DNA of 64,000 nt from Thermodesulfobacteriota bacterium (GTDB lineage Bacteria > Desulfobacterota > Desulfobulbia > Desulfobulbales > SURF-16). Within the stretch, counting starts at the first letter, position 1, and each line of letters begins with the position of its first letter. The translations under genes were made by a program, and so were the position numbers. Below are positions 42,420-61,807 of this stretch, piece after piece. The notes beneath the pieces were generated by a model that saw only the letters and a program-made list of their open reading frames with translations, had not been told where the DNA came from and did not search any database. The stretch spans positions 32,001 through 96,000 of the forward strand of contig JBFMAY010000002.1 of NCBI GenBank assembly GCA_040755455.1, in the 5' to 3' direction.

Positions 42420-42501
42420 TTTGGGAATGCGGATCGCGGATTGCAGATTTAACAAAGTTGAAAAATCATAAATAGCCCAAGAGCAATGGGGGAGAAAAGA
42501 T

Positions 42502-43002: not shown

Positions 43003-43010
43003 GGGGCGCC

Positions 43011-43889
43011 ATGCAGCGCATCACATTTCAGCTGCCGGGAGGTTACGTGGATGGTGACGGGCAGGTCTTAAGGGAGGTCGTGCTTTCTCCGCTCTCCGGC
43101 TTTGCCGAAAAAATGGTGGCCGACCGCAACGGCACGGCCACGGCGACCCTGGTCACCGCCGTGCTCAGGCACAGCATCGAGAGCATCGGCACCATTGTTG
43201 ACGTAACCGAGGAAACGGTGCGCCGCCTGCTGGTGGGTGACCGCCTCTTTCTGCTGCTTAAACTGCGGGAAATGACCTTCGGCCACCACATCCAGGCGGT
43301 TATCACCTGTTCCCGGCCGGAATGCGGCGAGCGGCTGGATATTGATTTTTTAACGGACAATATCCCGGTAACCCCGTGCCCGCAACAGTCTCTCTTTTAT
43401 GAGATGCGCCTCAGCCAGGAAGCGGGCGGCCACACCGTCAGCTTCCGGCTGCCCAACGGCGAGGACCAGGAAAGGATCATGCATCTGGTCGACACTGACG
43501 AGGCGCTGGCGGCCGACCGCCTGCTGGCCCGTTGCGTGCAGAGCATCGGCCCTGTCCAACCGCCGGCTATGGCAGATATCCTCAGTCTGTCCAGCACGGC
43601 CAAGGCGGAAATTGAAAGGGAAATGGATAGTCTGGCCCCCAAAGTCGGCCTCGACATGGAGGCGGTCTGCCCGGAGTGCGGAAGCACCTTTTCCCCCTGC
43701 TTCGATCTGCAGGAATTCGTCCTGGCGGAACTGACCACCCGGCTTGATCTGCTGCTTAAAGAGGTGCACTATCTGGCCTATCATTATCACTGGAGCGAAA
43801 AGGAAATCCTTGGCATGACCAGGGAGAACCGGCGGCGCTACATCGAGATTCTCGCCGGGGAAATGGAACGGTTGAACCATGCATTCTGA
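43011..43889 (+). CDS. Tail-assembly chaperone-like protein with Zn-ribbon motifs and DUF6760-like C-terminus
   Basis: GDR.FLLL.LR.MTFG, CSRPEC, FRLPNG.DQ, CPECG, 'EVHYLAYHYHWSEKEIL'. Confidence 0.75.
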   Translation: MQRITFQLPGGYVDGDGQVLREVVLSPLSGFAEKMVADRNGTATATLVTAVLRHSIESIGTIVDVTEETVRRLLVGDRLFLLLKLREMTFGHHIQAVITCSRPECGERLDIDFLTDNIPVTPCPQQSLFYEMRLSQEAGGHTVSFRLPNGEDQERIMHLVDTDEALAADRLLARCVQSIGPVQPPAMADILSLSSTAKAEIEREMDSLAPKVGLDMEAVCPECGSTFSPCFDLQEFVLAELTTRLDLLLKEVHYLAYHYHWSEKEILGMTRENRRRYIEILAGEMERLNHAF

Positions 43890-45252: not shown

Positions 45253-45262
45253 AGGGCCGACC

Positions 45263-46102
45263 GTGAGCGTATCCACAGCAATAGGACTGGTGAGCGAATC
45301 GCTGCGCAACCTCCTGCTTGGGGAGATGACCCTGACGCCGGAGGTGGATGTCACCATCCTGTCACCCCACGAGAAGGGGGTTGACCGGCGGGTCAACCTC
45401 TATCTGTACAAGGTGCAGGAAAGCCCCCTGCTGAAGAACATGGACTGGCAGGCCAGGGCCGACAATCCGGCCCGGCTCATGCCGCCGCCCCTGTCCCTGC
45501 ATCTTCATTATCTGCTGACCCCCTATGCCATCAACGACCAGCAGACAGGCAATGCCGCAAGCCACGAGATCCTGGGCGAGGCGATGCGTGTTTTTTATGA
45601 GAACCCAGTCATCCCGGCGGATTATCTGGCAGGCGAACTGGCCGGGGCCAGGGAGCAGATCAAGGTGATGCCCTCCACCATCATGCTGGAAGAGATGAGC
45701 ACGGTGTGGAGCACTTTTGCCCAGCCTTACCGGCTTTCCGTGGCCTATGAGGTGGCGGTGGTGCAGCTCGACATGCTGTCCGCCAGCGAACGGACCATGG
45801 CCAAACGGGTGCGGCACATCGGCGTGCCCCAGGTAGCCGCCCCCTTTCTGCCGCCCACGGTGGAAATGATCACGCCCATGGCCGCCCCGGCCGGGGCCAG
45901 CGTGACGGTCAGCGGCAAAAATCTCGCCGGCTGGAAGGCATACGTGTCACTGATGCGCAGGCCGGTCCTCGCCGGCCATGAGCTGACGGCTGACTCCTTT
46001 AGCGTCACCATCCCGGCCGACCTTGCCCCCGGTTTTTATGAAATACGGGTTGATATCTCCCACATGACGAGAAAGACCCTGTTCTTTGAGGTGACGCCGT
46101 GA
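45263..46102 (+). CDS. Pvc16/Afp16-like (DUF4255) cap/terminator protein with C-terminal IPT/TIG-like domain
   Basis: VNLYLYKV.E.P, PPLSL.LHYLLT, YRLSVAYEV.VV; 'GASVTVSGKNL'. Confidence 0.88.
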   Translation: MSVSTAIGLVSESLRNLLLGEMTLTPEVDVTILSPHEKGVDRRVNLYLYKVQESPLLKNMDWQARADNPARLMPPPLSLHLHYLLTPYAINDQQTGNAASHEILGEAMRVFYENPVIPADYLAGELAGAREQIKVMPSTIMLEEMSTVWSTFAQPYRLSVAYEVAVVQLDMLSASERTMAKRVRHIGVPQVAAPFLPPTVEMITPMAAPAGASVTVSGKNLAGWKAYVSLMRRPVLAGHELTADSFSVTIPADLAPGFYEIRVDISHMTRKTLFFEVTP

Positions 46103-48330
46103 GCGTGCAGGCCATGAAAAAGGATGCCAGCCGGGCCCTGCCTTACGGGGAAAGTTTCGCTCATCTCTCTGATGAGCTGACACGGCTGGATCTGCTGATC
46201 AGCCGGCAGGTGCTCAGGCTGCGGGCCGGGATGCCGGAGCAGCAGCCCGGCAGCGGCCTGTATATCTCCCCTGACCAGGTTGACCGGCTGCTGCAAGAAG
46301 GCGAGGGCATCCGCCCCGATCCGCCGGAGATCATGGCCAATCGCCGGCAGTTTGAGCTGCTGAGCCAGGAGATCAGTGCCAGGGTGGCCGCAAGCCTGGA
46401 GGAGAAAATCTTTCTTGCCCTGCCCTGCCTGGCCCGGATGTTCGGCCTGTCAGCAATTGAACTACAGGCCCTGGTCATCTGCCTGGCGCCGGAGCTGGAC
46501 CGCAGGTACGACACCCTCTATGCATACCTGCAGAACGACATCACCCGCAAAAAACCGTCCGTGGATCTGGTCCTGCAGCTGCTGGCCGACAGCCGCGAGG
46601 AGCGCTGGCAGCTGCGCCAGCTGTTTGCCGGCCACGCCAAGCTGCTGCGCAGCGGCATCCTGCAGAGCGTGCCTGATCCCCACAGCCCGTCCGGGGCATC
46701 TGATCTGGCCATGCTGCTCAAGGTGGACCGCCGGATGGTTGATTTCATCATCGGCAACAACGCCCTGGATGGCCGGCTCAACCGTTGCGCCCGGCTGCTC
46801 TCCCCCACTGTAACGCTGGATGAGGTGGCAGCGGCGCCGGAAATCAAGACCCTGCTGCTACACCTTGCCAGCCGCCACATCAGGCGGGAGATGATCAGGG
46901 AGAAGATGGTGATCCATCTGCACGGCCCCGCCGGCAGCGGCAAAACCACTTTGGCCCTGGCGCTGTGCCGGGAGCTGCAGTGCCCCATGCTGGTGGTCGA
47001 CCTGGAGCTGCTGCCCGGAGGTGACGAGGAATGGGAAAACACCGTGCGGCTGGCCCTGCGGGAGGGGCTGCTGACCCGCTCTATTCTTTTTTTCGACAAC
47101 ATCGACGTCCTGACCGAGCGGGCGGATAAGGGCAGAGCGTTGCTGAAAAAGACGGCCAGGGCCATTGCCGAGTACGGTTGGCTGGTCTTCCTGGCCGGGG
47201 AAAAGGCCTGGTCCGGCGAGGGATGCTTTGACGAGCTGCAGTTCCTGTCAGTTGTCGTGCCCGCGCCCCAGGTCCCCATCAGGGAGCAGGTCTGGCAGAA
47301 CATGCTGGCCGCCGAACCGGTTGACATCGGCAGGAAATGGTCGGCCAAGCTGGCCCGGCGCTTCGCCCTGACCCCCGGCCAGATAGGGCAGGCGGTCCGT
47401 TTTGCCCATACCCTGCAAGCTGCCGGCGGCCGGGACAGGAAACTGTCGCTCTCCGGGCTGTCCGCCGCCTGCCGCAGCCAGTCCCATCATAGGCTTTCGG
47501 AACTGTCCGTCAGGATTGAGGCGAAATATACCTGGGCCGACCTGGTGCTGCCGGAGGAAAAAACCGCGCTGCTCAAAGAGATCTGCGCCCAGGTCAAGCA
47601 TCAGTACCGGGTCTTTGCCGAATGGGGCTTTGAACGCAAGGTGGCCTACGGCCGGGGGCTCAGCGTGTTGTTCTCCGGCCCGCCGGGCACGGGAAAAACC
47701 CTGGCGGCCCAAGTCATGGCGGCTGAACTGCAGCTTGATCTCTACAAGATCGATCTCTCCGGCGTGGTCAGCAAGTACATAGGCGAGACGGAAAAAAACC
47801 TCAACCGGATATTTGCCGAGGGGGAGCGCAGCAACGCCATCCTCTTCTTTGATGAGGCGGACGCCCTGTTCGGCAAGCGCACCGAGGTCAAGGACGCCCA
47901 CGACCGTTACGCCAACATCGAGACCAGCTATCTGCTGCAGAAGATGGAGGAGTATGAGGGGATGGTCATCCTGGCCACCAATCTGCGCTCCAACATGGAT
48001 GAGGCCTTTACCCGGCGCATCCGCTTCATTGTCGAGTTCCCCTTTCCGGATGCCGCCTTGCGGGCCCGCATCTGGAAAAGCCATTTTCCCGGGGAGGCGC
48101 CGGTGCGTGACGGTATCGACTATGATTTCCTGGCCAGACGCTTCCAGGTGGCAGGGGGCAGCATCCGCAACATTGTCTTAAATACCGCCTTCCTTGCCGC
48201 GGAAAGCAATGAGGAGATTAGCATGAAGCATATCCTGCACGGGGTCAGGCGGGAGTTCGAGAAAATTGGCAAGCTGTGGAATGAGGAAACCATCAACCGC
48301 ACTGATTCTACCAGAAACCGAGGAGACTAA
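46099..48330 (+). CDS. CIS AAA+ ATPase (Afp15/Pvc15-like)
   Basis: Two P-loops (GPAGSGKT, GPPGTGKT), VVSKYIGETEKNL, DEADALFGKR, DRYAN. Confidence 0.95.
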   Translation: MSVQAMKKDASRALPYGESFAHLSDELTRLDLLISRQVLRLRAGMPEQQPGSGLYISPDQVDRLLQEGEGIRPDPPEIMANRRQFELLSQEISARVAASLEEKIFLALPCLARMFGLSAIELQALVICLAPELDRRYDTLYAYLQNDITRKKPSVDLVLQLLADSREERWQLRQLFAGHAKLLRSGILQSVPDPHSPSGASDLAMLLKVDRRMVDFIIGNNALDGRLNRCARLLSPTVTLDEVAAAPEIKTLLLHLASRHIRREMIREKMVIHLHGPAGSGKTTLALALCRELQCPMLVVDLELLPGGDEEWENTVRLALREGLLTRSILFFDNIDVLTERADKGRALLKKTARAIAEYGWLVFLAGEKAWSGEGCFDELQFLSVVVPAPQVPIREQVWQNMLAAEPVDIGRKWSAKLARRFALTPGQIGQAVRFAHTLQAAGGRDRKLSLSGLSAACRSQSHHRLSELSVRIEAKYTWADLVLPEEKTALLKEICAQVKHQYRVFAEWGFERKVAYGRGLSVLFSGPPGTGKTLAAQVMAAELQLDLYKIDLSGVVSKYIGETEKNLNRIFAEGERSNAILFFDEADALFGKRTEVKDAHDRYANIETSYLLQKMEEYEGMVILATNLRSNMDEAFTRRIRFIVEFPFPDAALRARIWKSHFPGEAPVRDGIDYDFLARRFQVAGGSIRNIVLNTAFLAAESNEEISMKHILHGVRREFEKIGKLWNEETINRTDSTRNRGD

Positions 48331-48335
48331 CTGAC

Positions 48336-49118
48336 ATGTTTGCCGCTCGTAAAACCAGACAGCATCGTGATCACGACAACGCCGGCTGGAGCCGCAATGC
48401 CGCCGCCGCGGCCCAAACCCATGCCGACATCCAGCCGCCTGCGGCCCAGTCCCTGCAGCGGGCCATGGGCAATCAGGCCATGCAGGCCATGGGAGATAAA
48501 AGTCACGCCTCCGGGCAGTCCCTGCCCCGCATCCGGCTGACAAACTTCTCGGCCGATGCGGCAACCGGGCAGATGAACAACAACGGCTCATTTGCGCCGC
48601 GGCTGCCGGACAAGAGCACCAACCAGACCGCCGGCGAGCAGGACCAGAACGCCTCGCTGACCTCCTTTGCCACGGAGTCCAGGGGGGTGGGCATTGTGGT
48701 GGAGATCACCAACGGCACCAGTTCGCCGGATTACCCGAACGGCTACCGCTGGACCCAGACCATTGACACCAATGTGCCCCTGGGCGGGACCACCTCCCCC
48801 TATGTTGACCCGCGGCCCAATGACGACACCAAACCATTTTACTGGACCGACGCCGAGGCGGCGGCACGGCCGACCACCTTTATCGATCATCCGTCGCGCA
48901 ATGCCCCGGCCAGCGGCACCACCACCTGGGATGCCGTGCTGTCGCTCAACGGGGTGAACGGCACCACGGTGACCAGGCTCGATTCCCTGGCCTACGGCTT
49001 TTCCATTGACACGGCGGGAACCGTATCACCCCATACCCCCACCAGTCCCGGGGGCGGGCTGGTGACCACCCACCAGATGACACTGGCTTCGGAATTTCCG
49101 GGATGGACTTTTAACTGA
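48336..49118 (+). CDS. Candidate CIS cargo/effector
   Basis: Low-complexity N-terminus with 'LQRAMGNQAM'; uncharacterised beta-rich C-terminal domain. Confidence 0.6.
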   Translation: MFAARKTRQHRDHDNAGWSRNAAAAAQTHADIQPPAAQSLQRAMGNQAMQAMGDKSHASGQSLPRIRLTNFSADAATGQMNNNGSFAPRLPDKSTNQTAGEQDQNASLTSFATESRGVGIVVEITNGTSSPDYPNGYRWTQTIDTNVPLGGTTSPYVDPRPNDDTKPFYWTDAEAAARPTTFIDHPSRNAPASGTTTWDAVLSLNGVNGTTVTRLDSLAYGFSIDTAGTVSPHTPTSPGGGLVTTHQMTLASEFPGWTFN

Positions 49119-49161
49119 GGGGGAAAATAGGATAAGACGGATAAATTTATGGATTTCCACC

Positions 49162-49560
49162 ATGCATGAGCAGCTGAAAAACAGCCCGGACTTCTCGGTG
49201 CGCATCGTCTGGAACGGCCACGAGGACAAGCCGTTCTACCGGGCCCATCTGGTCTCGGCCTCGCGCCGGGACTGGCTTGAGGACCAACCGTTCTGGGGCA
49301 ATGCGGTGATCAGCAGCGGGGAATACGGCCGGCTGTTTGCCATCCTGGAACAGCGCGGACTGCAAATCGACGAGGGATCCCATAAGGATAAGTTCGGCTA
49401 CAGCATGGAATTACAGACTGATGAGAAAACAGGCTATTGTTACCTGGGACTCACGGAAGAGACGGTGGCGACCCTGACCCTGATGCTTGCTGCCCTGGCG
49501 CCGGAGAACAGACCGCCGCTGCAGGGCATCATTGATCGGCTGCAGGGCATCAGATTATAG
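49162..49560 (+). CDS. Hypothetical protein (candidate immunity/partner)
   Basis: 132-aa soluble ORF directly after the candidate effector. Confidence 0.55.
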   Translation: MHEQLKNSPDFSVRIVWNGHEDKPFYRAHLVSASRRDWLEDQPFWGNAVISSGEYGRLFAILEQRGLQIDEGSHKDKFGYSMELQTDEKTGYCYLGLTEETVATLTLMLAALAPENRPPLQGIIDRLQGIRL

Positions 49561-49564
49561 ACTT

Positions 49565-49589
49565 TAGGGGCGGGCCTTGTGCCCGCCCT
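49565..49589 (+). repeat. REP-like palindrome
   Basis: TAGG-GGCGGGC-CTTGT-GCCCGCC-CT, intergenic. Confidence 0.6.
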
Positions 49590-49631
49590 GTTGGGGCAAC
49601 ATGGCGGCAATACACTTTATAAGGAATAATC

Positions 49632-50378
49632 ATGTCGGGCGGCTTTTCCAATAAACCGAAAATACTGCGCGGGGCCTTTGTGGAGTATGGACTCAGCATC
49701 CCTCCCCTTATTGTGCCGTTCCAGTTCAATCCGGTGCAGCTTACCAGGAACCGCAGCCTGATCTTCTCCGTACCCAATGCCCCGGCCCAGACAGGGCCTG
49801 CAGGCGAGACCGAGGAGGGACGAGCCACCAGGGTTGCGGCCAGCCGATCGACGCTGCGCCAGTTTCACCAGCGGGAGGAGTTCTCCGATCTGCTGGAGCT
49901 GCAACGGCAGCAGCAGGTGCAGGTGGGCGAGGAGTCCATCACCTTTGACATCCGCCTTGACGCGACGGACAAGCTCAATGACGGCGACGCCATCACCGAG
50001 CAGTTCGGCATCATGCCGCAGCTCTGCACCCTGGAACTCATGGTCTACCCCAAGAGCGAAAGCATGCTGGGCGCGGCGCTGGGCGCGCTGCTCGGCTCAT
50101 CCGGCGGGTTTTCCTTCACCCGCGGGGAGAACCCGCCGATGATTCTCTTCATCTGGGGCCGCAAAAGGGTACTGCCGGTGAACATCAACAGCATGAACAT
50201 CACGGAGACGGAGTTCAGCACGGATCTCAACCCCATCCGGGCAAGCGTGGCGGTGAACCTGACGGTGATCGAGGGGCCGAACCCAGTGTTTAAATATTCA
50301 AAGGCGATGAAAGAGGTCATGTCCGTGCTCAATGTGACCAATCTCGTCAATATAACCGATGTGGTGATTCCGGGATAA
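49632..50378 (+). CDS. CIS tube-initiator-like protein (Afp7/Pvc7 N-terminal type)
   Basis: FQFNP..L.R, PP..LF.WG...LPV.I.S..ITE..F...LNPIRA.V. Confidence 0.85.
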   Translation: MSGGFSNKPKILRGAFVEYGLSIPPLIVPFQFNPVQLTRNRSLIFSVPNAPAQTGPAGETEEGRATRVAASRSTLRQFHQREEFSDLLELQRQQQVQVGEESITFDIRLDATDKLNDGDAITEQFGIMPQLCTLELMVYPKSESMLGAALGALLGSSGGFSFTRGENPPMILFIWGRKRVLPVNINSMNITETEFSTDLNPIRASVAVNLTVIEGPNPVFKYSKAMKEVMSVLNVTNLVNITDVVIPG

Positions 50379-50381
50379 GCC

Positions 50382-50972
50382 ATGTTTTTCAAGAACTCAC
50401 GTTACAGAAAACAGCCATTCGCGGTGACCATCGACGCCAAGGGCCGCAGGCTCAAGTCCGTGACCCTGCGCGCCGCGCCGGAAACCAGCGGCACCTTCCT
50501 GCACACCATCGAGGAGGGCGACCGGCTCGATCACCTGGCCTACAAATATTACAAGGCCCCAAAAAAATGGTGGCGCATCATTGATGCCAACCCGGAATTC
50601 TCCTCGCCCCTTGACCTGCTCGGTTCAGGGGTGATGAGGTGCGTGCGCATTCCCCTGGCCCATGATGACGAGGCGGATGAGCCGCCCTGGAGCCAGCTTG
50701 CCGCCGGCCTTGCCGCGCTCATCGGCGTTGACGCATACCGGTTTGCGGAAACCGTGCTGCTCAACGAGGACAGCCTGAATGTGGCCGGCGAGACGATACC
50801 GGTCGCCACGGAGAGCTATGAGCGGTCGGTGATCGTCAGCTACAACAGTATAAACATTACTGAGAGCGAGCTTGCGGCAGCCGTGAACGCGGCCGGCTTT
50901 ACCGCGGGCCGGCCGGAGAATATCGGCCGGATCGGCAGGCAGATTATCATTGCCCCTGACGGCCCGGCGTAA
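50382..50972 (+). CDS. LysM/tail-X-like baseplate protein with an extra C-terminal domain
   Basis: SRY, 'GDRLDHLAYKYY....WWRIIDANP'. Confidence 0.85.
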   Translation: MFFKNSRYRKQPFAVTIDAKGRRLKSVTLRAAPETSGTFLHTIEEGDRLDHLAYKYYKAPKKWWRIIDANPEFSSPLDLLGSGVMRCVRIPLAHDDEADEPPWSQLAAGLAALIGVDAYRFAETVLLNEDSLNVAGETIPVATESYERSVIVSYNSINITESELAAAVNAAGFTAGRPENIGRIGRQIIIAPDGPA

Positions 50973-50982
50973 AAAGCGCACC

Positions 50983-52092
50983 ATGGAAAACGAGCATTTA
51001 ACCATCGAGATTGACGGGGCGGAGATCAGCGACCTCTATCCCCGGCTCATCAGTCTGGAGGTTGAGCATGACATTGAACTGGCCGCCATGTTCCGCATGC
51101 AGTTTTCCCTGCTGCTTGACCAGGGGGGCTCGTGGGGCATCCTGGATGACGAGCGTTTGCGGATCTGGAAACAGGTGAACATCCGCGCCGGGTTAAGCGA
51201 GGCGGACGATGAGCTGATGACAGGCTATATCACCCATGTCACCCCTTATTTTGACGGCGACCCGGCCCGCTGCGTGCTGGAGGTATGGGGCATGGACGCC
51301 AGCGTGCTCATGGACCGGGAGGAGAAGCTTAAAGACTGGCCGAACAAGAAGGACAGCGATATCGCCTCCGAGATCCTCGGCACCTATGGCCTGACGCCCG
51401 ATGTGGAGGACACCGAGGTGATCCATGACGAGGCGCTGTCCACCATCATCCAGCGGGAGACGGACATGCAGTTTTTAAAAAGACTGGCCCTGCGCAACGG
51501 CTTTGCGTGCTATGTGGAGGGCGATACGGCCTTTTTCAAAAAACCGCGGCTGGATGATCCGCCCCAGCCGGTGCTGTCCGTCCACTTCGGCAGCGAGACC
51601 ACGGTCAACCGTTTGTCGCTCACGGTCAATGCCCTGAGCCCGGCCAATGTGGCCATGTTCCAGATCGACCGGAACACGAAAGAGGTGCTGGAGGCCGAGG
51701 CCATTGCCAGTGAGCAGACGACCCTGGGCGCTGATGATGCGGCAAGCCATCTCGGCCCGGGCATGAATCCGGCCCAGGTTTTCGTCGGCCGCACCGCAGC
51801 AACCGGCACCCCGGAGATGACTGCCCTGTGCCGGGAACTGTACCATCAGGGCGAATGGTTTGTGGAAGGGGAAGGGGAAACAGAGGCCAACCAGTACGGC
51901 CACATCCTCAAATCGAGGAAAACCGTGACCATCAGGGGCATCGGTGAGACATACAGCGGGGTCTACTTTGTGAGCCACGTCACCCACATCTTCACCGATG
52001 ACGGCTACCGGCAGCTCTTCAAGGTCAAACGCAACGCCCTGCTGCCCACCGGCGCGGAAGAATTTTCATCCTCTTCTTCCGGGCTGCTGTAG
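50983..52092 (+). CDS. Baseplate hub protein (phage late control D / gp27-like)
   Basis: 'QRETDMQFLKRLA.RNG', 'YSGVYFVSHVTH'. Confidence 0.9.
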   Translation: MENEHLTIEIDGAEISDLYPRLISLEVEHDIELAAMFRMQFSLLLDQGGSWGILDDERLRIWKQVNIRAGLSEADDELMTGYITHVTPYFDGDPARCVLEVWGMDASVLMDREEKLKDWPNKKDSDIASEILGTYGLTPDVEDTEVIHDEALSTIIQRETDMQFLKRLALRNGFACYVEGDTAFFKKPRLDDPPQPVLSVHFGSETTVNRLSLTVNALSPANVAMFQIDRNTKEVLEAEAIASEQTTLGADDAASHLGPGMNPAQVFVGRTAATGTPEMTALCRELYHQGEWFVEGEGETEANQYGHILKSRKTVTIRGIGETYSGVYFVSHVTHIFTDDGYRQLFKVKRNALLPTGAEEFSSSSSGLL

Positions 52093-52158
52093 GAGCGGTT
52101 CGCAAACCGCCCCTTGGCGCCACATGGGATTCAGGGCACCCACAAGGGGTGCACCTAC
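52089..52158. repeat. REP doublet (REPIN-like): two inverted GTAG-type palindromes
   Basis: GTAGGAGCGGTTCGCAAACCGCCCCT ... AGGGCACCCACAAGGGGTGCACCTAC; the GTAG supplies the upstream stop codon. Confidence 0.75.
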
Positions 52159-52192
52159 GGATGGGAGGGAAAGAAAGAGATGAGGGGATTAC

Positions 52193-53074
52193 TTGTCGCT
52201 TGAAAAGATCGTTGCCAGACTGGTGGACAAGGTGGAACACCGTTATTACGGCAAATACCGTGGTATCGTGGTGGACAATGCCGACCCCGAGCATCTGGGC
52301 AGATTAAAACTCAAGGTGCCGAGCATTCTGGGCAACGACATTGTCACCGGCTGGGCCGCAGCCTGTGTCCCATACGGCGGGGAGGCGAACCAGGGCATGC
52401 TGTTCATCCCCGAGGTCAACGCCGGGGTGTGGGTTGAATTTGAAGAGGGGGATCTGGAGTTTCCCATCTGGGTGGGCGCCTTCTGGAGCAAGCCGGACGG
52501 CGAGAGCGAGCTGCCCAAACCCAATGACCCCGACGGCGCGGAGCAGGGCGGGGTGCAGGACCCGCCCACCCGCAAGATCATTAAAACGGTCAAGGGCCAC
52601 TCCATCCAGTTCGAGGACAAGGACGGCGAGGAGCTGATCACCATCGTCGAGGCGGTGAACAGCAATGTCATCACCCTGGACGCAAACGGCATCACCATTA
52701 AAGACGGGGCCGGCACCATCACCATTGAAGACGCGAACGGCAACCAGGTGTTGCTGGACAGCAGCGGCATCACCTGCACGGACATGAGCGGCAACGAGAT
52801 CAAGATGGACAGCCAGGGGGTAAAGGTGTCTGATGCCAACGGCAACACCATCAAGATGGATGCCATGAGCGGTTTCCCGGCGGGACCGGGGGTGAAGGTC
52901 AATGGCGGCTCAGGCCGGGTGTGCATGGAAGGGCTGATCAACTGGCTGATGACCCATCAGCATGTGGGCAATCTGGGGGCGCCGACCCCGCTCTTTCCGG
53001 GGAGCATGGTCGATCTCACCATGGCCCTTTCCGGGGTGAATGCCCTGCTGTCAAAAAAAATAAAGGTGGAGTAA
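52193..53074 (+). CDS. Spike protein (P2 gpV / gp5 OB-fold + beta-helix)
   Basis: YYGKYRGIV.DN.DP...GR, PEV..GVWVEFE.GD..FPIW.G, repeated 'D.NGN.I.MD', terminal HQH. Confidence 0.92.
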   Translation: MSLEKIVARLVDKVEHRYYGKYRGIVVDNADPEHLGRLKLKVPSILGNDIVTGWAAACVPYGGEANQGMLFIPEVNAGVWVEFEEGDLEFPIWVGAFWSKPDGESELPKPNDPDGAEQGGVQDPPTRKIIKTVKGHSIQFEDKDGEELITIVEAVNSNVITLDANGITIKDGAGTITIEDANGNQVLLDSSGITCTDMSGNEIKMDSQGVKVSDANGNTIKMDAMSGFPAGPGVKVNGGSGRVCMEGLINWLMTHQHVGNLGAPTPLFPGSMVDLTMALSGVNALLSKKIKVE

Positions 53075-53081
53075 TGCGACC

Positions 53082-53432
53082 ATGGGCCTGATTATCGGCG
53101 ACGAAAATGCCTCCCAGGGCATGACCAAGGCGATCTACGACAAGATCCGCCAGGTCATGGAGCCCATTGACGGCGCAAGCGAGGAGCAGATGACGGATAT
53201 CCGCGCCGGCTGGAAGAAGCTCTCCCATGCCATCGCCCACGGCGTGGTCACCCATATCAAGTCGAACATGGAGATCAAAAAGATCAAGACCATCGATAAG
53301 GTGAGCGTGCAGGGTTCCACCGGCACGGCCGCGCCCAGCGCCCACTCGCACAGTGTGGCCATTGCGGCCGAGGACGGGAATCTGCAGTTTACCGAGACCA
53401 ATTATCCCGCAGGACAGGGACATGTGGAGTGA
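53082..53432 (+). CDS. Small hypothetical protein between spike and gp25, with an HxH motif
   Basis: 116 aa; 'AHSHS'; no PAAR motif. Confidence 0.7.
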   Translation: MGLIIGDENASQGMTKAIYDKIRQVMEPIDGASEEQMTDIRAGWKKLSHAIAHGVVTHIKSNMEIKKIKTIDKVSVQGSTGTAAPSAHSHSVAIAAEDGNLQFTETNYPAGQGHVE

Positions 53433-53437
53433 CAGCC

Positions 53438-53806
53438 ATGGCAGGTGAAGTGACCACATTCGGCTTCCCCTTTGCGGTGAACAAGGCGGGCGGCATCAGC
53501 GCCAGCGGCGGCGACGAGGCCATCCGGGGCAAGATTATCCAGGTGCTGTTTACCGCGCCCGGCGAAAGGGTGAACATGCCCGAATTCGGCTGCGGCATCT
53601 TCAACCTGGTGTTTGAGGCCAACAACACCATTCTCGCCGCGGCCATGGAGTTCACCATCGGCCAGGCCTTGGCCCGCTGGCTGGATGAGGACATCATCGT
53701 GGACGGCGTTGACGTGGAGTCCCGGGAAGAGACCATCACCGTGGAGATCTCCTACACCAGAAGGCAGGATTTGAGCCGGGAGACGGTGCGGATACATTTT
53801 CGATAA
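53438..53806 (+). CDS. GPW/gp25 family baseplate protein (Afp9-like)
   Basis: FPF, 'LFTAPGERVNMPEFGCG'. Confidence 0.93.
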   Translation: MAGEVTTFGFPFAVNKAGGISASGGDEAIRGKIIQVLFTAPGERVNMPEFGCGIFNLVFEANNTILAAAMEFTIGQALARWLDEDIIVDGVDVESREETITVEISYTRRQDLSRETVRIHFR

Positions 53807-53865
53807 AGACGTTCAAGCGTTTGAGCGTTTAAACGCTGGAACGCTACCACCCGAAGGGTAAGAAT

Positions 53866-55425
53866 ATGGCAGAGATCAAGAAGATAGACGAACACACCAT
53901 TGTGGACTACATGGCCCGGGACTATGACAGCCTGCTGCAGTCCATGCGGGAACTCATTCCGGCCAGGCTGCCGGAGTGGAAAAGCTATGCCTCGGAGGCC
54001 GATTTCGGCAATGTCCTGCTGCAGCTCTTTGCCCACATGGGCGACATCCTCAGCTACTATCAGGACCGGGTGGCCAATGAGAGCTTCCTGGGCACGGCCC
54101 AGAGCAGACGAAGCGTCATTGATCACCTGAAACTGATCGGCTACCGGCTGGCCACCGCTGCCCCGGCCTCCGCCACCCTGGACCTGACCATTCCGGCCGC
54201 CTGCACGGCGGTCATCACCCTCCGCCGGGGCGACGCCTTTGCCACCAAAAGCCAGAAGGACAAGCCCAGCGTCCGCTTTGAATACAGCCGGGAGGACAAC
54301 CTGGTGATTGACTGCAGCACCCTGTCCGTTGATCCGGCAACCAGCAAGAAATACTTCAGGGGCGTGCCGGTTGAGGAGGGACGCCTGGTTAAAAACGAGA
54401 TCATCGGCTTTTCCGACGGCGGCAAAAACCAGCGATTCACCCTGGCCCATGCCGGGCTGATCCTACGCTCAGCCGGGGCAACCCAGAAAATCAACCGGGA
54501 TATCATTATCACCACCAGCCTGGGCGAGACCATTGACGAGTGGACCCTGCAGGAAAGCCTGGCCTTCAGCCGGGAAAAGCAGAAGGACTACACCGTGGAG
54601 ATTGACGATGAGGACTCGGCCACCATCATTTTCGGCGACGGCACCTTTGGCGCCATACCCGCAGGCGGCGCAACCATCAGGGCCACCTACCGGGTGGGCG
54701 GGGGGCTCAAGGGCAACACCCCGGCAGGCACCATCCAAACCATCGTCGACGCCGCGCAGCTGGTGTTAAACGGCATCAAGGCCACCAACCCGGAGGCCGC
54801 CACCGGCGGCGCGGAACGGGAGAGCATCAAGCATGCCGTCATGCACGCCCCGTCCGTGTTCCGCTCGCTGAAACGGGCGGTCACCGAGGATGACTACAAG
54901 GCCCTGGCCCTGGACTTCAAGGGGGTGGGCAAGGTGCGGGCCGTGTCCGCCAGCTGGAACCGGGTCACCTTGTTTGTCGCACCCGAGGGCGGCGGCCGGG
55001 TGAGCGACGTGCTGGAGGCAGGTCTGCTGGCCTACTTCGAGGACAAGCGGCCGGTTACCACCATTATCACCATCGAGGATGTGGATTATGTCAAGCTTTA
55101 CATCACCGCCGCCATCGGGGTGAAAAGCTACTATCCGCCTGATGACGTGAAGGAAAAGGTGATGGCCGCGGCGGCCGCGCTGCTGGCCTTTGCCAATGTC
55201 GATTTCGCCCAGACCATCTATCTCTCCAAATTCTACGAGGCGATCGAGGCGGTGGAAGGGGTGGATTACGTCACCATCAGCGAGTTCAGGCGCCAGAATC
55301 AGCCGGCCGGTTATGTTGAACCGGCGGGCAAGATCACCATGAAGGAAAATGAGATCCCCGTTATTCCCGCAGGTGTCCCGGCCTATGCCAAGGGCATCAG
55401 AATCGTTATCGAGGGTGAAAGCTGA
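53866..55425 (+). CDS. Baseplate J-like wedge protein (Afp11-like)
   Basis: DYMARDYDS, D.LSYYQDR.ANE.FL.TA, FGDG..G.IP, RAVT..DY. Confidence 0.93.
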   Translation: MAEIKKIDEHTIVDYMARDYDSLLQSMRELIPARLPEWKSYASEADFGNVLLQLFAHMGDILSYYQDRVANESFLGTAQSRRSVIDHLKLIGYRLATAAPASATLDLTIPAACTAVITLRRGDAFATKSQKDKPSVRFEYSREDNLVIDCSTLSVDPATSKKYFRGVPVEEGRLVKNEIIGFSDGGKNQRFTLAHAGLILRSAGATQKINRDIIITTSLGETIDEWTLQESLAFSREKQKDYTVEIDDEDSATIIFGDGTFGAIPAGGATIRATYRVGGGLKGNTPAGTIQTIVDAAQLVLNGIKATNPEAATGGAERESIKHAVMHAPSVFRSLKRAVTEDDYKALALDFKGVGKVRAVSASWNRVTLFVAPEGGGRVSDVLEAGLLAYFEDKRPVTTIITIEDVDYVKLYITAAIGVKSYYPPDDVKEKVMAAAAALLAFANVDFAQTIYLSKFYEAIEAVEGVDYVTISEFRRQNQPAGYVEPAGKITMKENEIPVIPAGVPAYAKGIRIVIEGES

Positions 55426-55427
55426 CC

Positions 55428-57758
55428 ATGCGTCTCAAGGCGATAACAGCAGCAGCCTGTCCTGAAGGCAACAGGATAGCGCTTTCCTGGACCAACCCTG
55501 ATCCGGCAGGCTTCCCGGGCATCAGGGTGGTGCGCCGGGAAAAGACCTTTCCCGTCTCGCCGCAGGACGGCGTCATCGTGGCCCAAGGAACAGAGCTTGC
55601 CAGCGGCTTCAATGCCGACGGCGAGGCGCTCTACTCCATTATCGACAGCAATCTGCAGGGCGAGACCCACTATTATTACACCCTCTTTCCCTATCTGGGA
55701 GCCCCCCCGGTCTTTGCCTTCGATTACCATAACCGCTGCGTGGCCATGGCCACGCAGGCATACGGGTTCGGAGCCCGGATGTTTGACCAGCTGCCGCGCA
55801 TCTATCACCGCTATGACACGGTGCTGCCCGCCGACCCTGCCGAGGTGCCGGCGGAGCTTGGCCAGGCCGGCCAGCTCAGGCGCTTTCTCGAGGTGCCGGG
55901 CAGCATGCTCGATCTGCTCTATAGCCATGCGGGCGCCGCACTCGATCTGCACAACACGGACCGCATGGACGGACGGCTGCTGCCCCTGCCGGCCCAGTGG
56001 ATCGCCTGGCAGATCGACTACCGGCTGGAAATCGACGCCCAGCGCAACGAGATCCGCAACGCCCCCCATCTTTACAAAACCGTGGGGCTGATCCCCACGG
56101 TGGAAGCCACGGTGAAGCGCCTCACCAACTGGGAAAGCAGGGTAAAGGAGTTTGTCCACAACATCTTTCTCAGCAACAACCCGGAAAGGCTCAACCTGTG
56201 GACCATGCGCCTTGATGAGGAAGGGCAGTGGCAGGAGGCGACAGAGCCCTTTTCGCTGAATTTCGCCTATGAGGGCCGGCCTGCGGCAGTCACCGATGCG
56301 GACGGCGCCATCTGGCTTTTCTATCATACCCGCAAAATGAACCGATGGGATATCTGGCACAAAACCTGGTCAGCGGCAGACGGCTGGTCGCCGAGCAGTC
56401 CGCTTTCGGAAAGCCGGAACATTGATAAGCATCCCGCCGCGGCCCTGCAGGGCACCACCCTGTGGCTCTTCTGGAGTTCCTACAGCGAGCAGGATGGCAC
56501 CTGGCGCATTCTTTACCAGCGCAGAAGCGCCGGGGCGTGGTCAGAGGCGGCAACCTTCGGCACAGATTTGCTTCAGCGCCGGGCACCTGCGGCAACGGCG
56601 GACAGCAGCGGCGGCCTCTGGCTCTTCTGGCTGGAGCTGGACGCCGGCCGCTGGCAGATGAAGTACAACCGTCATGACGGCACGGACTGGCAGCTCGCCT
56701 CCCCTGCCCTGTTCCCGCAGGATAGCGGGCTCGATGCCAGGGTTGACAGCGAGCCGTTTGTGCTCGCTCATACCAGCGGTGCGGTGGAGCGGCTCATGGT
56801 GCTCTGGTCGCGCAAGGAGCCGGCGGCCCTCCCAGGCCAGACCAGGTGGACTGTGGCCTGCCGGGTCAAGGGCTCCGTCGATCCGGCAAACAGCGCGGAC
56901 TGGGGAGGCGTCCTGCTCAAACCCAAGGATACGGCGGACGTAAACGACAGCGACCCCGTTGCCCTGGCCGGGCCGGCCGGCAATGTCGAGATCTTTTTCA
57001 GCTCGGACCAGAGCGGCAGCTGGTCCCTGTGGCGCACCGGACTTGATCCCGCCTCCTGCGCCTGGGCCGCCGCCGAGCAAATCAGCCGCTCGCCCTATAC
57101 GGAACGCTATCCCCTGCCGCTTTTGCTCCGCGGCGAGAGAATGGTCCTCTTTCGGACCAACCGCAACCTCACATACAGCAGCGATGTATACAAGGCAACC
57201 AAGACCATGGATATGCGCTATGCCGGCAGTGTCAGCTGCATGGCGGCCAACATTGCCAAAAACTCCCTGCGCGGCAAATTCACCGATTTCCAGGCCTACA
57301 CCCATGATGTCGGGGTGGACGGCAAAATGACGGACAGCAACTGGTACTCCCGCCAGACGCTGGGCATCTACCTCACCCCGGACACTGAGGATCCGGGCCT
57401 CATTCTGCGCAACCAGAAGTTGTTGCGCGGGGTGCTGCACCAGTTTCTGCCCATCCAGGTGCGCTATGTCTTTGTCATCGAGCCCGCCATCTACAAGGAA
57501 CAGATCTACACCTACGATTTCCCCACCGCGGAAAACGCACGGTTCATTGAAGAGCAATATACAGACAGCCTGACAACGGTGAGTTCCGAGGTTTACAGCG
57601 GACCCGCCGACAGTTATGCCGACCGGATTCCGGAATGGCGCTGGCTGCGCTCCTGGAGCACGGAGTACACCGCGGGCGGCAGTGTTGATTTTGCCGCCGG
57701 GCCGGTCAGCACCCGCTTCAGGACGTGGCATGTCGGTGTAACAGAAGGAGAGGAGTAA
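55428..57758 (+). CDS. Baseplate/tail protein I-like wedge protein with N-terminal FN3-like and internal Trp-rich propeller-like repeats
   Basis: 'LPRIY.RYD...LRRFL', 'LLP..AQWI.W'; repeated 'PAA..D..G.(I/L)WLF(W/Y)'. Confidence 0.78.
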   Translation: MRLKAITAAACPEGNRIALSWTNPDPAGFPGIRVVRREKTFPVSPQDGVIVAQGTELASGFNADGEALYSIIDSNLQGETHYYYTLFPYLGAPPVFAFDYHNRCVAMATQAYGFGARMFDQLPRIYHRYDTVLPADPAEVPAELGQAGQLRRFLEVPGSMLDLLYSHAGAALDLHNTDRMDGRLLPLPAQWIAWQIDYRLEIDAQRNEIRNAPHLYKTVGLIPTVEATVKRLTNWESRVKEFVHNIFLSNNPERLNLWTMRLDEEGQWQEATEPFSLNFAYEGRPAAVTDADGAIWLFYHTRKMNRWDIWHKTWSAADGWSPSSPLSESRNIDKHPAAALQGTTLWLFWSSYSEQDGTWRILYQRRSAGAWSEAATFGTDLLQRRAPAATADSSGGLWLFWLELDAGRWQMKYNRHDGTDWQLASPALFPQDSGLDARVDSEPFVLAHTSGAVERLMVLWSRKEPAALPGQTRWTVACRVKGSVDPANSADWGGVLLKPKDTADVNDSDPVALAGPAGNVEIFFSSDQSGSWSLWRTGLDPASCAWAAAEQISRSPYTERYPLPLLLRGERMVLFRTNRNLTYSSDVYKATKTMDMRYAGSVSCMAANIAKNSLRGKFTDFQAYTHDVGVDGKMTDSNWYSRQTLGIYLTPDTEDPGLILRNQKLLRGVLHQFLPIQVRYVFVIEPAIYKEQIYTYDFPTAENARFIEEQYTDSLTTVSSEVYSGPADSYADRIPEWRWLRSWSTEYTAGGSVDFAAGPVSTRFRTWHVGVTEGEE

Positions 57759-58285
57759 TGGAACATATCGGCAATCAGTTAAAGGGCATATACCGGGATA
57801 TCCTGAAAACGGCAGACGGCAGCGTGATCCACGACAGCGGCTGGGTCAGCAATACCATCGTCGAGCGGTGCCGCATCCTGCTGGCGGGTTTCATGCGCAA
57901 CGACCCCACCGACGGCATTCACCACCTGGCCTTCGGCCAGGGGCTGGCAACATGGGACAGCGCCGGTGTGCCTGCCCCGGACCCCACGGCCACGGCACTG
58001 GTGGCGCCGTACAATCCGCCCATTGCCGCGGCAAGTCTCACCATGACCTATCTGGACGAAGACAACAACGAGGTGGCGGCCCCGACCAGCAGGCTGCAGA
58101 TCACGGCAATCCTGGCCCCGGGTTATCCCGCGCCGCTGGCGCCGCTGACCACCTACCCTTTACGGGAATTCGGTCTGTTCGGCAGATTTAACGGCGCGGA
58201 TTACATGATCAATTCAATCAGACATGCGGTGATTCATAAAGACGCATCAGCCACGCTGATCAGGATGATCCGCCTGTTTTTTTAA
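57758..58285 (+). CDS. CIS-associated structural protein (tail collar/fibre-attachment-like)
   Basis: TAATG coupling; 'N.IV', 'LA.G.G', 'LREFGLFG'. Confidence 0.72.
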   Translation: MEHIGNQLKGIYRDILKTADGSVIHDSGWVSNTIVERCRILLAGFMRNDPTDGIHHLAFGQGLATWDSAGVPAPDPTATALVAPYNPPIAAASLTMTYLDEDNNEVAAPTSRLQITAILAPGYPAPLAPLTTYPLREFGLFGRFNGADYMINSIRHAVIHKDASATLIRMIRLFF

Positions 58286-58417
58286 TAAAAAAACGTTCCG
58301 CAGGGCAGGAGCGGGCCATGCCCTCTCCTGCTGCAGGATGACATTACTTTCCCAGGTTTCGGGCTTACCCGGCAACGGTAAACCGTGAACTGACTTTCAC
58401 TGCAAGGGGTGTACAAT

Positions 58418-59749
58418 ATGGGCAACTTCTCGAGAAATACATTTGACCGGTTAAAACACTATGTCGGTGTCCGCCTGCAGCAGGGTGTGCCACTCATAGA
58501 TGCGGACTGGAACGAACAGGAGGATATCCGCAAGTATGAACTGCAGGCCTTTCTGAAATGGTTTGCCGGCAACGGCGTGCCAAGCGGCAACGACGGCTTC
58601 CGCATTCTGGCCGCGGCGGGCACGACCAACAACTTCGATATCCAGGGCGGCAACGGCACGGCCCTGGGCGCGGGCCGCATCCTGGTGGAAGGCATGGACG
58701 CCATGCTGGAAAGCACCATGCGCTACAGCAGCCAGCCACTGTACAACAATCCCATCCTGGCCGCCCGCTGGGGGGTGGCGGTCATCCCCCCGCTCACCAC
58801 GCCCATCGCCGCCAGAGAGGATCTGGTCTATATCGATGTGTGGGAGCGCGAGGTGGACAGCAGCGAGGACGGCAATCTGATCAACCCGGCCATCGGCATC
58901 GAGTCCTGCGTGCGCCTCAGGCGCGAATGGGCGGTGCGCGTGGCCCAGGGCGCCGTCTCCCTGCCCGCTCCTCCGGCCGGCCATGGTTATTACACCCTGG
59001 CCCGCATCAAACGGGCGGCCGGCAATACCACCATCCTGGCCGCGCAGATCGAGGACCTGCGCACGGTGGGCATCAATCTCTCCGACCTGGCGGCGGAGAT
59101 CATCGACGCCAGGGGCATGAAGGGCAATGTGGGCAACCGGCTGGACGAATCGCTGACCAAGGGCGGCCAGCTGCGGTTCAATGTGGTGGGCAATGACCAG
59201 GTGAAGGCCGATGCCGCCATCAACGAGTCAAAGATCCTCTTTGCCGCCACCGGCCATGACCACAGCGGCGGGGCCGGTGGCAACATGATCGGCACAAGCG
59301 GCCTGGAAAACAATGCCGTGACCAACGCCAAGCTGGCCGATCTTTCGGTGACCAACGCCAAACTGGTCAATACCTGCGTCACTACCGCAAAAATTTATGA
59401 CGATTCGGTGACCACGGCCAAGATCGCTGACGATACCGTCACCCGCGCCAAACTTGATCTCACGGTAGTGAACAGCGGCAGTGTAGTCGATCTCGCGCCC
59501 GGCACCTATGTCACCCAGTTGGTACAGACCAACGTCAGCTGGGCCGACGGATTAAAGAGGATCTATATGCCGGCGGTCGCCATTACCAGCGTTACCGGCA
59601 GCGGCATGGCCGATATCCGCCATGAATTTGTCTACCGGGCGTGGTCGGGCAGTGACACGTACGATGTCTATATCCGGATCAGCAATGAATCCGGCGGCAG
59701 TGAACTGGTGGATCTTTACTGGTATGTTTACATCTTTGCGGAGAATTGA
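58418..59749 (+). CDS. Tail fibre protein (DUF6519-like N-terminus, 10-aa repeats, distal tip domain)
   Basis: GNFSR.TF...KHY.GV.LQQG....DADWNE; GHDHSG; five 'VTxAK(L/I)' repeats. Confidence 0.8.
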   Translation: MGNFSRNTFDRLKHYVGVRLQQGVPLIDADWNEQEDIRKYELQAFLKWFAGNGVPSGNDGFRILAAAGTTNNFDIQGGNGTALGAGRILVEGMDAMLESTMRYSSQPLYNNPILAARWGVAVIPPLTTPIAAREDLVYIDVWEREVDSSEDGNLINPAIGIESCVRLRREWAVRVAQGAVSLPAPPAGHGYYTLARIKRAAGNTTILAAQIEDLRTVGINLSDLAAEIIDARGMKGNVGNRLDESLTKGGQLRFNVVGNDQVKADAAINESKILFAATGHDHSGGAGGNMIGTSGLENNAVTNAKLADLSVTNAKLVNTCVTTAKIYDDSVTTAKIADDTVTRAKLDLTVVNSGSVVDLAPGTYVTQLVQTNVSWADGLKRIYMPAVAITSVTGSGMADIRHEFVYRAWSGSDTYDVYIRISNESGGSELVDLYWYVYIFAEN

Positions 59750-59752
59750 GCA

Positions 59753-60157
59753 ATGAGCCACAAAAAAATGATATGGAAGGAATTTCAACGCACCGGCATC
59801 CTTGATTCCCCGGACGAAAAGGTGCAGAGTTTTGTGCAGTATCTGCGAAATTGCCGGGAAAACTGCTGGGAGCAGATCATCCCTGAATTCAAGGAAAAAT
59901 ACTACGACTGCTTCGACACCATTGTCCCGGTGCTGGCCCGCATGAACGATCCCCTGATCCAGCTGGTACTGGCCCGGCATGCCGATGCCAGCAAACCTAA
60001 GGAGCGGGAACTGCTGGTAACCATGGCCAAGGAGGCGGATGCCGAAAAGAACCCGGTGCTGCTGAAACGGATCGCCGCCATGAAAATTACCACGGTCACC
60101 AATGAGTTGAAAAAAAGGACCTTGCCGGAAAATCTAAGAAAATATACGGAAGGCTAA
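59753..60157 (+). CDS. Hypothetical helical protein
   Basis: 134-aa ORF 3 bp after the fibre gene, with GGAG upstream. Confidence 0.7.
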   Translation: MSHKKMIWKEFQRTGILDSPDEKVQSFVQYLRNCRENCWEQIIPEFKEKYYDCFDTIVPVLARMNDPLIQLVLARHADASKPKERELLVTMAKEADAEKNPVLLKRIAAMKITTVTNELKKRTLPENLRKYTEG

Positions 60158-60174
60158 TAAGATACGTTGTTTCG

Positions 60175-60823
60175 ACCGGTCTCCGCGTGGGGCGCCGCCG
60201 TGACGGCAGATGCCGATCAATGCGGGAAATGGCGGACCGCCGCACCGCAAGAGTGGTTAGGGAGGGATGGGGTTTGGGGCAGTACATCGCCGTTGTCCCC
60301 GGGTCTCCCGAAGGCGGGAAGCGCTGGCGCTCCACCCGGAGGCCGGTCGGATTGAACTTGGCAGTGTGGGAAAAACAGCAATGAGGTTGTAACTGAGGGA
60401 ATAGATAATCTCTAACCGGTCTCCGCGTGGGGCGCCGCCGTGACGGCAGATGCCGATCAATGCGGGAAATGGCGGACCGCCGCACCGCAAGAGTGGTTAG
60501 GGAGGGATGGGGGTTTGTGGCAGTACATCGCCGTTGTCCCCGGATCTCCCGAAGGCGGGAAGCGCTGGCGCTCCACCCGGAGGCCGGTTAGAGCAAGCAT
60601 AATGATGTAAAAAGAAAAACAAGGCTGCAACTGAGAGGACAAAATTTCGACCGGTCTCCGCGTGGGGCGCCGCCGTGACGGCAGATGCCGATCAATGCGG
60701 GAAATGGCGGACCGCCGCACCGCAAGAGTGGTTAGGGAGGGATGGGGGTTTGTGGCAGTACATCGCCGTTGTCCCCGGATCTCCCGAAGGCGGGAAGCGC
60801 TGGCGCTCCACCCGGAGGCCGGC
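60175..60823 (+). repeat. Array of three ~174-nt near-identical self-complementary elements (60175-60347, 60415-60588, 60650-60823) with 67- and 61-nt spacers
   Basis: Direct comparison: copies 2 and 3 differ only at the last base; copy 1 differs from copy 2 by one indel and two substitutions. Confidence 0.97.
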
Positions 60824-60853
60824 CGGATATCTCTCAGGTTGGCCCATGAGACA

Positions 60854-61807
60854 ATGGCCCACATGATAAAAGGCTTTTATAACGACCTGCTTTTTTACGG
60901 TCACAACAGAGTGCGGCTCGACCGGGGCTGGCGCCCTAATCTCATCGTCGGGGGCTGCAACCGGCTGCTGGCCGCGCTGATGAAAGGCCAGCAGGGGCTT
61001 GGCGGCATCCTGTATCTGGCGGTGGGCGAGGGGTTCAAAGAGTGGGATGCGGCCCTGCCGCAGCCGCAGCCGGCCAGCACCAGGCTCTATAAGGAAATCC
61101 TGCGCCGCCCCATCGCAACCGAGCAGATCATTTTCCTGGACAGCACGGGTCAGCCGGCCGCCACGCCAACCGGCCGCCTGCAGATCAGCATCGAACTGAC
61201 CCGGGAGGATTTCCCGGCCAACGGCTTCCAGCCGGTCAGGGAATTCGGGCTGTTCGGCGGCAATGCCACGGCAGATGCCGACAGCGGTTTCATGATCAAC
61301 CATGTCATGCATCCCCGCATCGACATCACGCAAGGACTGACCCTGTGCCGGGTCCTGCGTCTCGATTTTTCCCAGGGGCCGGCCGTCCAAGAGGAAATCC
61401 GGGGCTTCGGCGCCGGCCTCGCGGCGCGCAGCATTGACGGCGTGGGAGATATCTATGGCCCGGCGCTGGCCACGGCCGGGGTCAACGTGCTGGGCGACTT
61501 CCTGGCCATGAACCCCCTTGCGCCACCGGCCGGCATTCCTGCCGTGAAACTGCGGGAATTCCGCGCCAAGGCCAGGATGGTCATGGCACTCAAGGTAGGC
61601 CTCGCCCCCTTTGCCGCCCTGTCCCATATCAACATCAGCCAACTGCTCAAGGAAAATCCCCAGACCCTGGCCGGCATGGCCAATACCTTTACGGTATCCG
61701 CGGAAATGGTGGCGGATCTGCAGGAGGAACTGATGCCCCTGCAGGTAGCGCTGGATGATGAGCAGTTACAGCAGCTGACCCTGGCCAGTCTGGTGCAGGA
61801 ATCGTAA
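60854..61807 (+). CDS. Paralog of 57758-58285 with an extra C-terminal HhH/DUF4332-like domain
   Basis: Colinear similarity (KG.Y.D.L, GW..N.IV..C..LLA..M, PT.RLQI, REFGLFG, MIN...H..I); 'IDGVGDIYGPALATAGV'. Confidence 0.78.
   Translation: MAHMIKGFYNDLLFYGHNRVRLDRGWRPNLIVGGCNRLLAALMKGQQGLGGILYLAVGEGFKEWDAALPQPQPASTRLYKEILRRPIATEQIIFLDSTGQPAATPTGRLQISIELTREDFPANGFQPVREFGLFGGNATADADSGFMINHVMHPRIDITQGLTLCRVLRLDFSQGPAVQEEIRGFGAGLAARSIDGVGDIYGPALATAGVNVLGDFLAMNPLAPPAGIPAVKLREFRAKARMVMALKVGLAPFAALSHINISQLLKENPQTLAGMANTFTVSAEMVADLQEELMPLQVALDDEQLQQLTLASLVQES

Follow-up and report, generated by a model that had tools for sequence, protein, structure and literature searches.

In this work, an array of three near-identical RNA units was observed inside an injection-system (eCIS) operon of a Thermodesulfobacteriota bacterium, in a stretch of 64,000 nucleotides that was analysed as a whole and is called the window below. 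We conclude, with a probability of about 0.9, that the unit is an independently folding structured RNA of the sense strand, that it represents a new family, and that this family belongs to one eCIS subtype. It is a real and selected structured RNA family that appears to be undescribed. The novelty is the family itself and its link to the eCIS; its function is hypothetical.

The array and its operon

The features on which the analysis rests are listed here in coordinates of the window.

40473..61807, + strand: eCIS operon containing the array, recognised by Pfam
57725..58285, + strand: p186, a baseplate/fibre-network domain protein and the marker of the eCIS subtype
58409..59749, + strand: DUF6519 tail-fibre-type gene, the nearest upstream structural gene at every RNA locus whose contig extends there
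59753..60157, + strand: p134, an all-alpha helical-repeat protein with no Pfam family, directly upstream of the array
60172..60350, + strand: RNA unit 1, which begins about 15 nt 3' of the p134 stop codon (covariance model score 180.6 bits)
60351..60411, + strand: spacer 1, 42% GC
60412..60591, + strand: RNA unit 2, with elements P1 to P7 mapped (single-sequence fold, RNAalifold, covariance model match)
60592..60646, + strand: spacer 2, 36% GC, 55% identical to spacer 1
60647..60826, + strand: RNA unit 3 (covariance model match), the stalk of which takes in sequence from spacer 2 and from the downstream side and so reaches about 60625-60845
60854..61807, + strand: p315, a fusion of a p186-like domain with a helix-hairpin-helix-like (HhH-like) domain, downstream of the array in family f1

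A sequence-only reading of this DNA had described three almost identical units of about 174 nt with AT-richer spacers between the gene behind the tail fibre and the last gene of the operon, and the mapped coordinates agree with it. The copies lie at 60175-60347, 60415-60587 and 60650-60822 (240 and 235 nt from start to start), flanked by the gene for the 134-aa protein (59753-60157) and by the final gene of the operon (60854/60863-61807). Their pairwise identity is 98-99%, and their GC content is 69-70% against 36-42% in the spacers. When the 3.98-Mb assembly (91.8% complete) was searched by blastn and nhmmer, these three copies turned up at one locus and none elsewhere, and the array is a single locus per genome in every carrier. 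Unit lengths in the homologues span all three frames, as expected of non-coding sequence, and the inverted repeat seen in the DNA at the unit ends is the P1 stalk of the RNA.

The Pfam matches of the operon include sheath, T4 gp19-like tube, Pvc16, AAA ATPase, CIS tube, gpD, VgrG-like, gp25, baseplate J and DUF6519 proteins; no capsid or terminase family was found among the 20 operon proteins scanned, in keeping with an eCIS. Elsewhere in the window, a tRNA-Arg(CCG) gene at 62993-63069 (- strand), about 1.2 kb past the operon, is a possible integration site. Three 120-bp direct repeats at 7229-7593 lie within a 1040-aa ATPase-TPR-TIR gene (5896-9018, - strand), the product of which is probably an NLR-like defence protein.

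No Rfam 15 model matched the array at E<=10, in line with the earlier judgement that it is no known RNA family, and none matched a distant unit from a second order at the same threshold. Across the window, only tRNA reached an Rfam gathering score. Word-level likenesses to RNase P, the cobalamin, glycine and SAM riboswitches, SECIS and the hammerhead were dropped because no Rfam model matched. To our knowledge, no eCIS with a dedicated non-coding RNA has been described. No paper on a non-coding RNA in eCIS loci was found in the accessible literature, although subscription papers and the supplementary motif lists of large screens may hold it under another name; one passage of PMC12246660 has no bearing on the array RNA.

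Fold, strand and conservation of the unit

Single-sequence folding, RNAalifold and pair counts all gave one fold, which contains two three-way junctions. It leads from the stalk P1 through junction 1 (P1-G-P2-GAAA[A/U]-P3), a GA/RAWG internal loop, P4 and junction 2 (GNA-P5-NUA-P6-GAA) to P6, which carries a tandem G.A motif, and to P7. The P2 arm, the P5 loop and P7 are variable peripheral arms. The elements of unit 2 are placed as follows.

60412-60436/60567-60591, + strand: P1
60438-60441/60462-60465, + strand: P2, followed by the linker GAAAU
60471-60474/60563-60566, + strand: P3
60477-60481/60554-60558, + strand: P4
60484-60486/60495-60497, + strand: P5
60500-60504/60546-60550, + strand: P6a, with the tandem G.A between it and P6b
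60508-60513/60537-60542, + strand: P6b
60519-60521/60530-60532, + strand: P7

As RNA of the + strand, unit 2 folds at -99.4 kcal/mol (z -4.81, with 0 of 200 shuffles as good), compared with z -3.58 for RNA of the - strand and -2.50/-1.96 for DNA. The whole array folds as three separate units (z -8.5). Furthermore, a unit from the second order folds unaided into the same core, and the alignment of four second-order units keeps both junctions, with a P2 arm about 70 nt longer. The units' own minimum free energy structures recover from 0 to 26 of the 26 core pairs, in full for some units and poorly for others.

The closing stem of about 22 bp that had been proposed was found to be longer, since the P1 stalks form about 25-34 contiguous pairs (25-34 bp) by extension into complementary flanks that differ from copy to copy. 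Most of the inner structure first proposed gives way to the two-junction fold. By comparing 26 homologues, the GACGGC/GCCGTT stem is pairable in 64% of cells and the TGCGG/CCGCA arm in 59%, so neither was retained. The TCCCG/CGGGA hairpin is pairable in 93% of cells over the 26 homologues, but in the distant order just 2-3 of its 5 pairs are kept. The GGCG/CGCC hairpin is pairable in 99% of cells of the same homologues and in 4 of 4 pairs in the distant order; it could be an alternative conformer that competes locally with P3/P4.

Over 26 units and 57 pairs, 97.0% of cells are paired and 17 pairs change on both sides, which together with folding and RNAalifold upholds the idea of a structured, covarying RNA. 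On four of five measures, none of 500 shuffles of the 26 units reached these values; on the fifth, pair types, 44 did, and slid controls gave 36-52%. The double-sided changes over these units are mostly in P1 and P2, and the core shows mainly G-C/G-U exchanges within the family. In the core alignment, with 31 sequences drawn from both orders, 97.0% of cells are likewise paired, with double-sided changes in P4 (C-G to G-C, C-G to U-A) and P6b; the number of pairs with such a change is 4, a value equalled by 72 of 500 shuffles. All these covariation counts overstate the independent events, because the sequences are related and come from two sampled lineages. The preference of G-U pairs for the operon-sense strand, noticed at first sight, was confirmed: G-U and A-C cells on the + strand stand at 113:17, and the better z-score was on the + strand in 18 of the 26 units. 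Moreover, 19 unpaired positions of the core do not vary among 31 distinct cores (of 24 listed, 5 were discounted as paired in P1/P2); the pattern with which the cores were excised itself requires some of the invariant letters, yet it dropped no unit found by the models. The units are 74-81% identical to those of the sister genus, like codon positions 1-2 of the adjacent gene (80-84%), the four-fold sites of which are about 50% identical.

One mismatch interrupts the stalk of most units, 10-11 bp away from the junction. The nearest neighbour of the inner part of a unit is a sibling copy in the same genome for 19 of 25 units. For the outer stalk, this is so in 4 of 25, and otherwise the closest stalk belongs to a different genome, usually from the corresponding place in the array. 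We infer from these sequence relationships that the arrays may predate the species, that the cores would have been homogenised by gene conversion, and that each copy may be under selection to close a long helix of its own. The spacers span 23-451 nt in relatives and hold insertions. Those of the sister genus (L009 1680-2120, L011 1680-2005, L007 1235-1495) are filled by AT-rich short tandem repeats, and a REP-like palindrome, about 90 nt long and containing CACAGAG words, occurs in the second spacer of L004, L006 and L058 and in the spacer of L007, never in a unit.

Distribution and neighbouring genes

At the DNA level, 13 of 61 relatives gave a match, which was full-length in 11; the matches in genomes G019 and G049, of 19-22 nt, were dropped as chance. 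A covariance model built from the 26 units (R1) returned the same 11 of 40 family genomes, in two genera, each with 1-3 tandem copies just 3' of the DUF6519 module of one eCIS subtype. Of 401 genomes in the order, 12 encode the p186 marker, namely the 11 RNA carriers and G008, the contig of which stops just after p186 and before the RNA site. All 8 loci retrieved via p134 have the RNA about 17 nt past the p134 stop codon, several of these loci being the same genomes again. In a 401-genome sample of the phylum, the marker was found in four further genomes, including G358 from another order. G358 carries two RNA copies (E 2e-10 and 5e-9) just 3' of its DUF6519 module, and its unit is not in R1. 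In the order of G358, marker and RNA occur in the identical 3 of 96 genomes. The tie to CIS loci that had been suggested is therefore seen both in the family (11 of 40) and in the other order.

A close relative of this eCIS is present in genome G111 (baseplate J 65% and gp25 72% identical), and no RNA copy was detected in about 53 kb around it or genome-wide. A search of 19 more distant eCIS and phage-tail stretches (4 eCIS and 15 viral-contig tail loci, that of G111 included) gave 0 matches, and the RNA is thus not a universal part of the eCIS. Beside its first structural set, G111 has a second one (L109, G111:C77:10000-27000), and the two are separated by a row of eCIS_core (DUF4157) genes. 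No RNA match was obtained in viral contigs with two patterns or in phages, and 10 plasmids gave just one chance match of 29 nt. The core model matched 1 of 151 phylum genomes, that of the window itself, and the p186 marker protein was found in 0 of 10 and 0 of 3 genomes of two small classes. Genome and metagenome scans with p134 gave 4 close loci each; the flanking DNA surveyed is that of close p134 loci, as opposed to the 72 distant p134 clusters, and of a minority of the 133 p315 relatives.

The p134 gene stands directly upstream of the RNA in most family members and is replaced in G001 and in the second order. Its predicted structure has a pLDDT of 91 and no Foldseek match at E<=0.001; the best VIA Z of 6.9, to designed helical repeats, reflects merely a common arrangement, and the best Atlas score of 0.87 is a lead only. 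The source labels of its close relatives are Desulfobulbaceae or Thermodesulfobacteriota. Among the 72 distant clusters, one is fused to a DUF6519 protein. Members of the p134 family (P0019, P0020, P0047, P0048) show fusions to a DUF6519 protein, a baseplate-J-like N-terminus, DUF1508 or DUF2188, and many p134-family members have basic low-complexity tails. In G001, p134 was not found; a 199-aa gene and an AbiEii-like nucleotidyltransferase gene take its place, as in the second order. The latter gene is directly upstream of the RNA in 4 genomes of both lineages (G001, G358, G504, G505). The first copy in G001 (L006 1496-1674), which follows this same gene, has a P2 arm like that of the second order and unlike its sibling copies; together with the shared nucleotidyltransferase gene, this suggests that the module moved between the lineages.

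On the 3' side, the p186-like domain of p315 has a fold that resembles the phage A511 gp105 / phi812 baseplate arm segment. Its HhH-like domain is based on a weak Pfam match in one relative and precomputed HHH_5 matches in several, and makes p315 an attractive candidate for a nucleic-acid-binding partner of the RNA. The same domain forms the C-terminus of baseplate proteins of about 1100 aa in distant eCISs without the RNA (L078 8813-9172, L079 8704-9066). At the RNA loci of the second order, p315 with the HhH-like domain was not found; the RNA is followed there by a 471-aa gene and an eCIS_core peptidase gene. The 471-aa protein (L088 4408-5823) has no Pfam family and 30 unnamed similar Atlas clusters across phyla. 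In G007, two genes lie between the array and p315, and a beta-helix gene is downstream. The gene after the RNA thus varies (p315, beta-helix gene or 471-aa gene) at a gap of about 35 to 365 nt. There is no constant flanking gene; what the loci have in common is the structural backbone and the DUF6519 subtype. At one locus (L051 1119-6994), baseplate J, a 776-aa gene and DUF6519 are split over several frames by frameshifts or assembly errors, and the three RNA units are intact.

Possible function and relation to known systems

Tentatively, and with somewhat less than an even chance, we hypothesize from the sequence that the RNA is cut from the operon transcript by RNase III, is bound by an eCIS protein and acts in trans. 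Co-transcription of the array with the structural operon seems likely because the gap after p134 is 15 nt, no sigma-70 consensus site was found at positions 59600-62300, and no terminator-like site follows the units in the window. The substrate of RNase III is about two turns of double helix. The enzyme could cleave the long stalks (25-34 bp) to give a stable RNA of about 150-190 nt here and about 250 nt in the second order. An RNase III gene is present in 5 of 5 genomes tested; the enzyme is near-universal, and therefore its presence says little. The invariant junction core would then bind an eCIS protein, the baseplate/fibre end being the most plausible place, and the RNA could help in assembly or loading as a cofactor, or be associated with the particle. 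With tandem copies, the ratio of RNA to mRNA would rise, so that copy number sets the dose, and gene conversion would keep the cores alike. Pairing to the operon in antisense amounts to one 11-nt complement, which is at chance level. Three sequencing runs were compared with positions 40500-60412; the one on record as RNA had a depth of 0 in the unit-1 bin and only short scattered matches elsewhere, and this run, which may not contain the organism, speaks neither for nor against expression. It is unlikely that the RNA, cut in several copies from the operon transcript, is a physical component of the baseplate/fibre region, or a cargo loaded and delivered into target cells; if it were, this would be the first ribonucleoprotein injection system.

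A cis-acting regulator of the accessory genes, either riboswitch-like or a protein-binding leader, with tandem copies that sharpen the response, is also conceivable, and we regard it as rather unlikely. The RNA always precedes accessory genes on the sense strand, whether p315 or the 471-aa gene with the eCIS_core peptidase gene, and a TATACT box, which we take to be a -10 element, is present 8-14 nt upstream of 3 of 4 second-order units. Invariant junction nucleotides are typical of aptamers, and the hairpin that competes with P3/P4 is pairable in nearly all units. However, the downstream gene and its distance change from locus to locus, a P1 of this length would be too stable for switching, the array lacks a terminator-like site after the units, and spacers of 23-451 nt speak against cooperative aptamers. 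In addition, the model of the c-di-AMP riboswitch, which has a similar two-junction layout, did not match the array at E<=10. The core is compact and rich in invariant unpaired purines, has two three-way junctions, and sits where the structural genes give way to the accessory ones; this would also suit a new class of self-cleaving or catalytic RNA that cuts the operon transcript and uncouples the two groups of cistrons. This reading is improbable, as no Rfam ribozyme model matched at E<=10, no conserved pseudoknot was noticed, and one cut would not require three copies.

The AbiEii-like nucleotidyltransferase gene upstream of the RNA in four genomes of both lineages, and multicopy arrays that fit titration, raise the thought of an RNA antitoxin or decoy that keeps an eCIS-associated enzyme or effector inactive, as in type III toxin-antitoxin arrays. 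The nucleotidyltransferase, however, has no tblastn match in the genome of the window, p134 takes its place in most family members, and unit size and spacers are unlike those of type III arrays; such a role is distinctly improbable. A locally duplicated DNA-level element (REPIN/MITE or recombination site) would account for the terminal inverted repeat and for tandem copies homogenised within genomes, and yet it is very improbable. Every carrier has one locus, at a position fixed across two orders; G-U pairing is strand-asymmetric, DNA folding is weaker, and neither fixed ends nor a target duplication was seen at the array. Because the units occur only at one locus in the genome by blastn and nhmmer, and at the same site in all relatives, the array is not a dispersed REPIN/MITE, as had been considered at the outset.

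Until now, eCISs have been treated as all-protein machines, and a conserved, tertiary-structured RNA that is confined, across two orders, to a single subtype suggests that RNA takes part in their assembly, loading or control. Its known range is narrow, with two lineages, and within it several copies appear to have been maintained since before the species diverged. Should the answer be more ordinary, a new class of riboswitch or ribozyme, the RNA would still found a family of its own in a well-defined genetic setting.

In comparison with known eCIS loci (PVC/Afp-like, DUF6519-bearing), the present locus has the same full structural gene set with accessory genes at its 3' end, and differs by its dedicated non-coding RNA. 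REPIN/MITE and BIME elements are likewise palindromic-ended, intergenic and tandem, whereas the array is not dispersed, keeps an orthologous position and shows covariation of the RNA type. Type III toxin-antitoxin RNA arrays consist of short contiguous repeats; they and CRISPR-like arrays also place tandem RNA units in an operon, but the present units are 175-250 nt long and almost the same from copy to copy, lack a variable part that resembles a guide, and are not accompanied by any constant cognate nuclease or toxin. The c-di-AMP (ydaO) riboswitch likewise has two three-way junctions, the second of which is surrounded by short words similar to those of the array RNA. In contrast to that riboswitch, the array RNA has a long stalk and no expression platform; of two genome matches to RF00379 at E<=10, neither is at the array. 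Outside the window, G000:C2:5550-5680 is a true c-di-AMP riboswitch (72.8 bits). In Y RNAs (Ro60/Rsr), the ends pair in a long mismatched stem and a locus often holds several copies; the ends of the array unit also pair in a long stem with a mismatch, in several copies. TROVE protein was found in 0 of 5 carrier genomes, which are incomplete assemblies (the control was positive in 2 of 14), and no tRNA-like domain was called in the array. Finally, the phi29 pRNA is a structured RNA of about 170 nt with a long closing helix and a three-way junction, present in several copies on a phage-type particle. The array RNA differs from it by two junctions, a tandem array, a tail-only operon without a DNA packaging motor and the lack of an Rfam match, and no complementary interlocking loops were seen. 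By analogy, the array RNA may work like the phi29 pRNA, as a particle-associated RNA, without belonging to the pRNA family.
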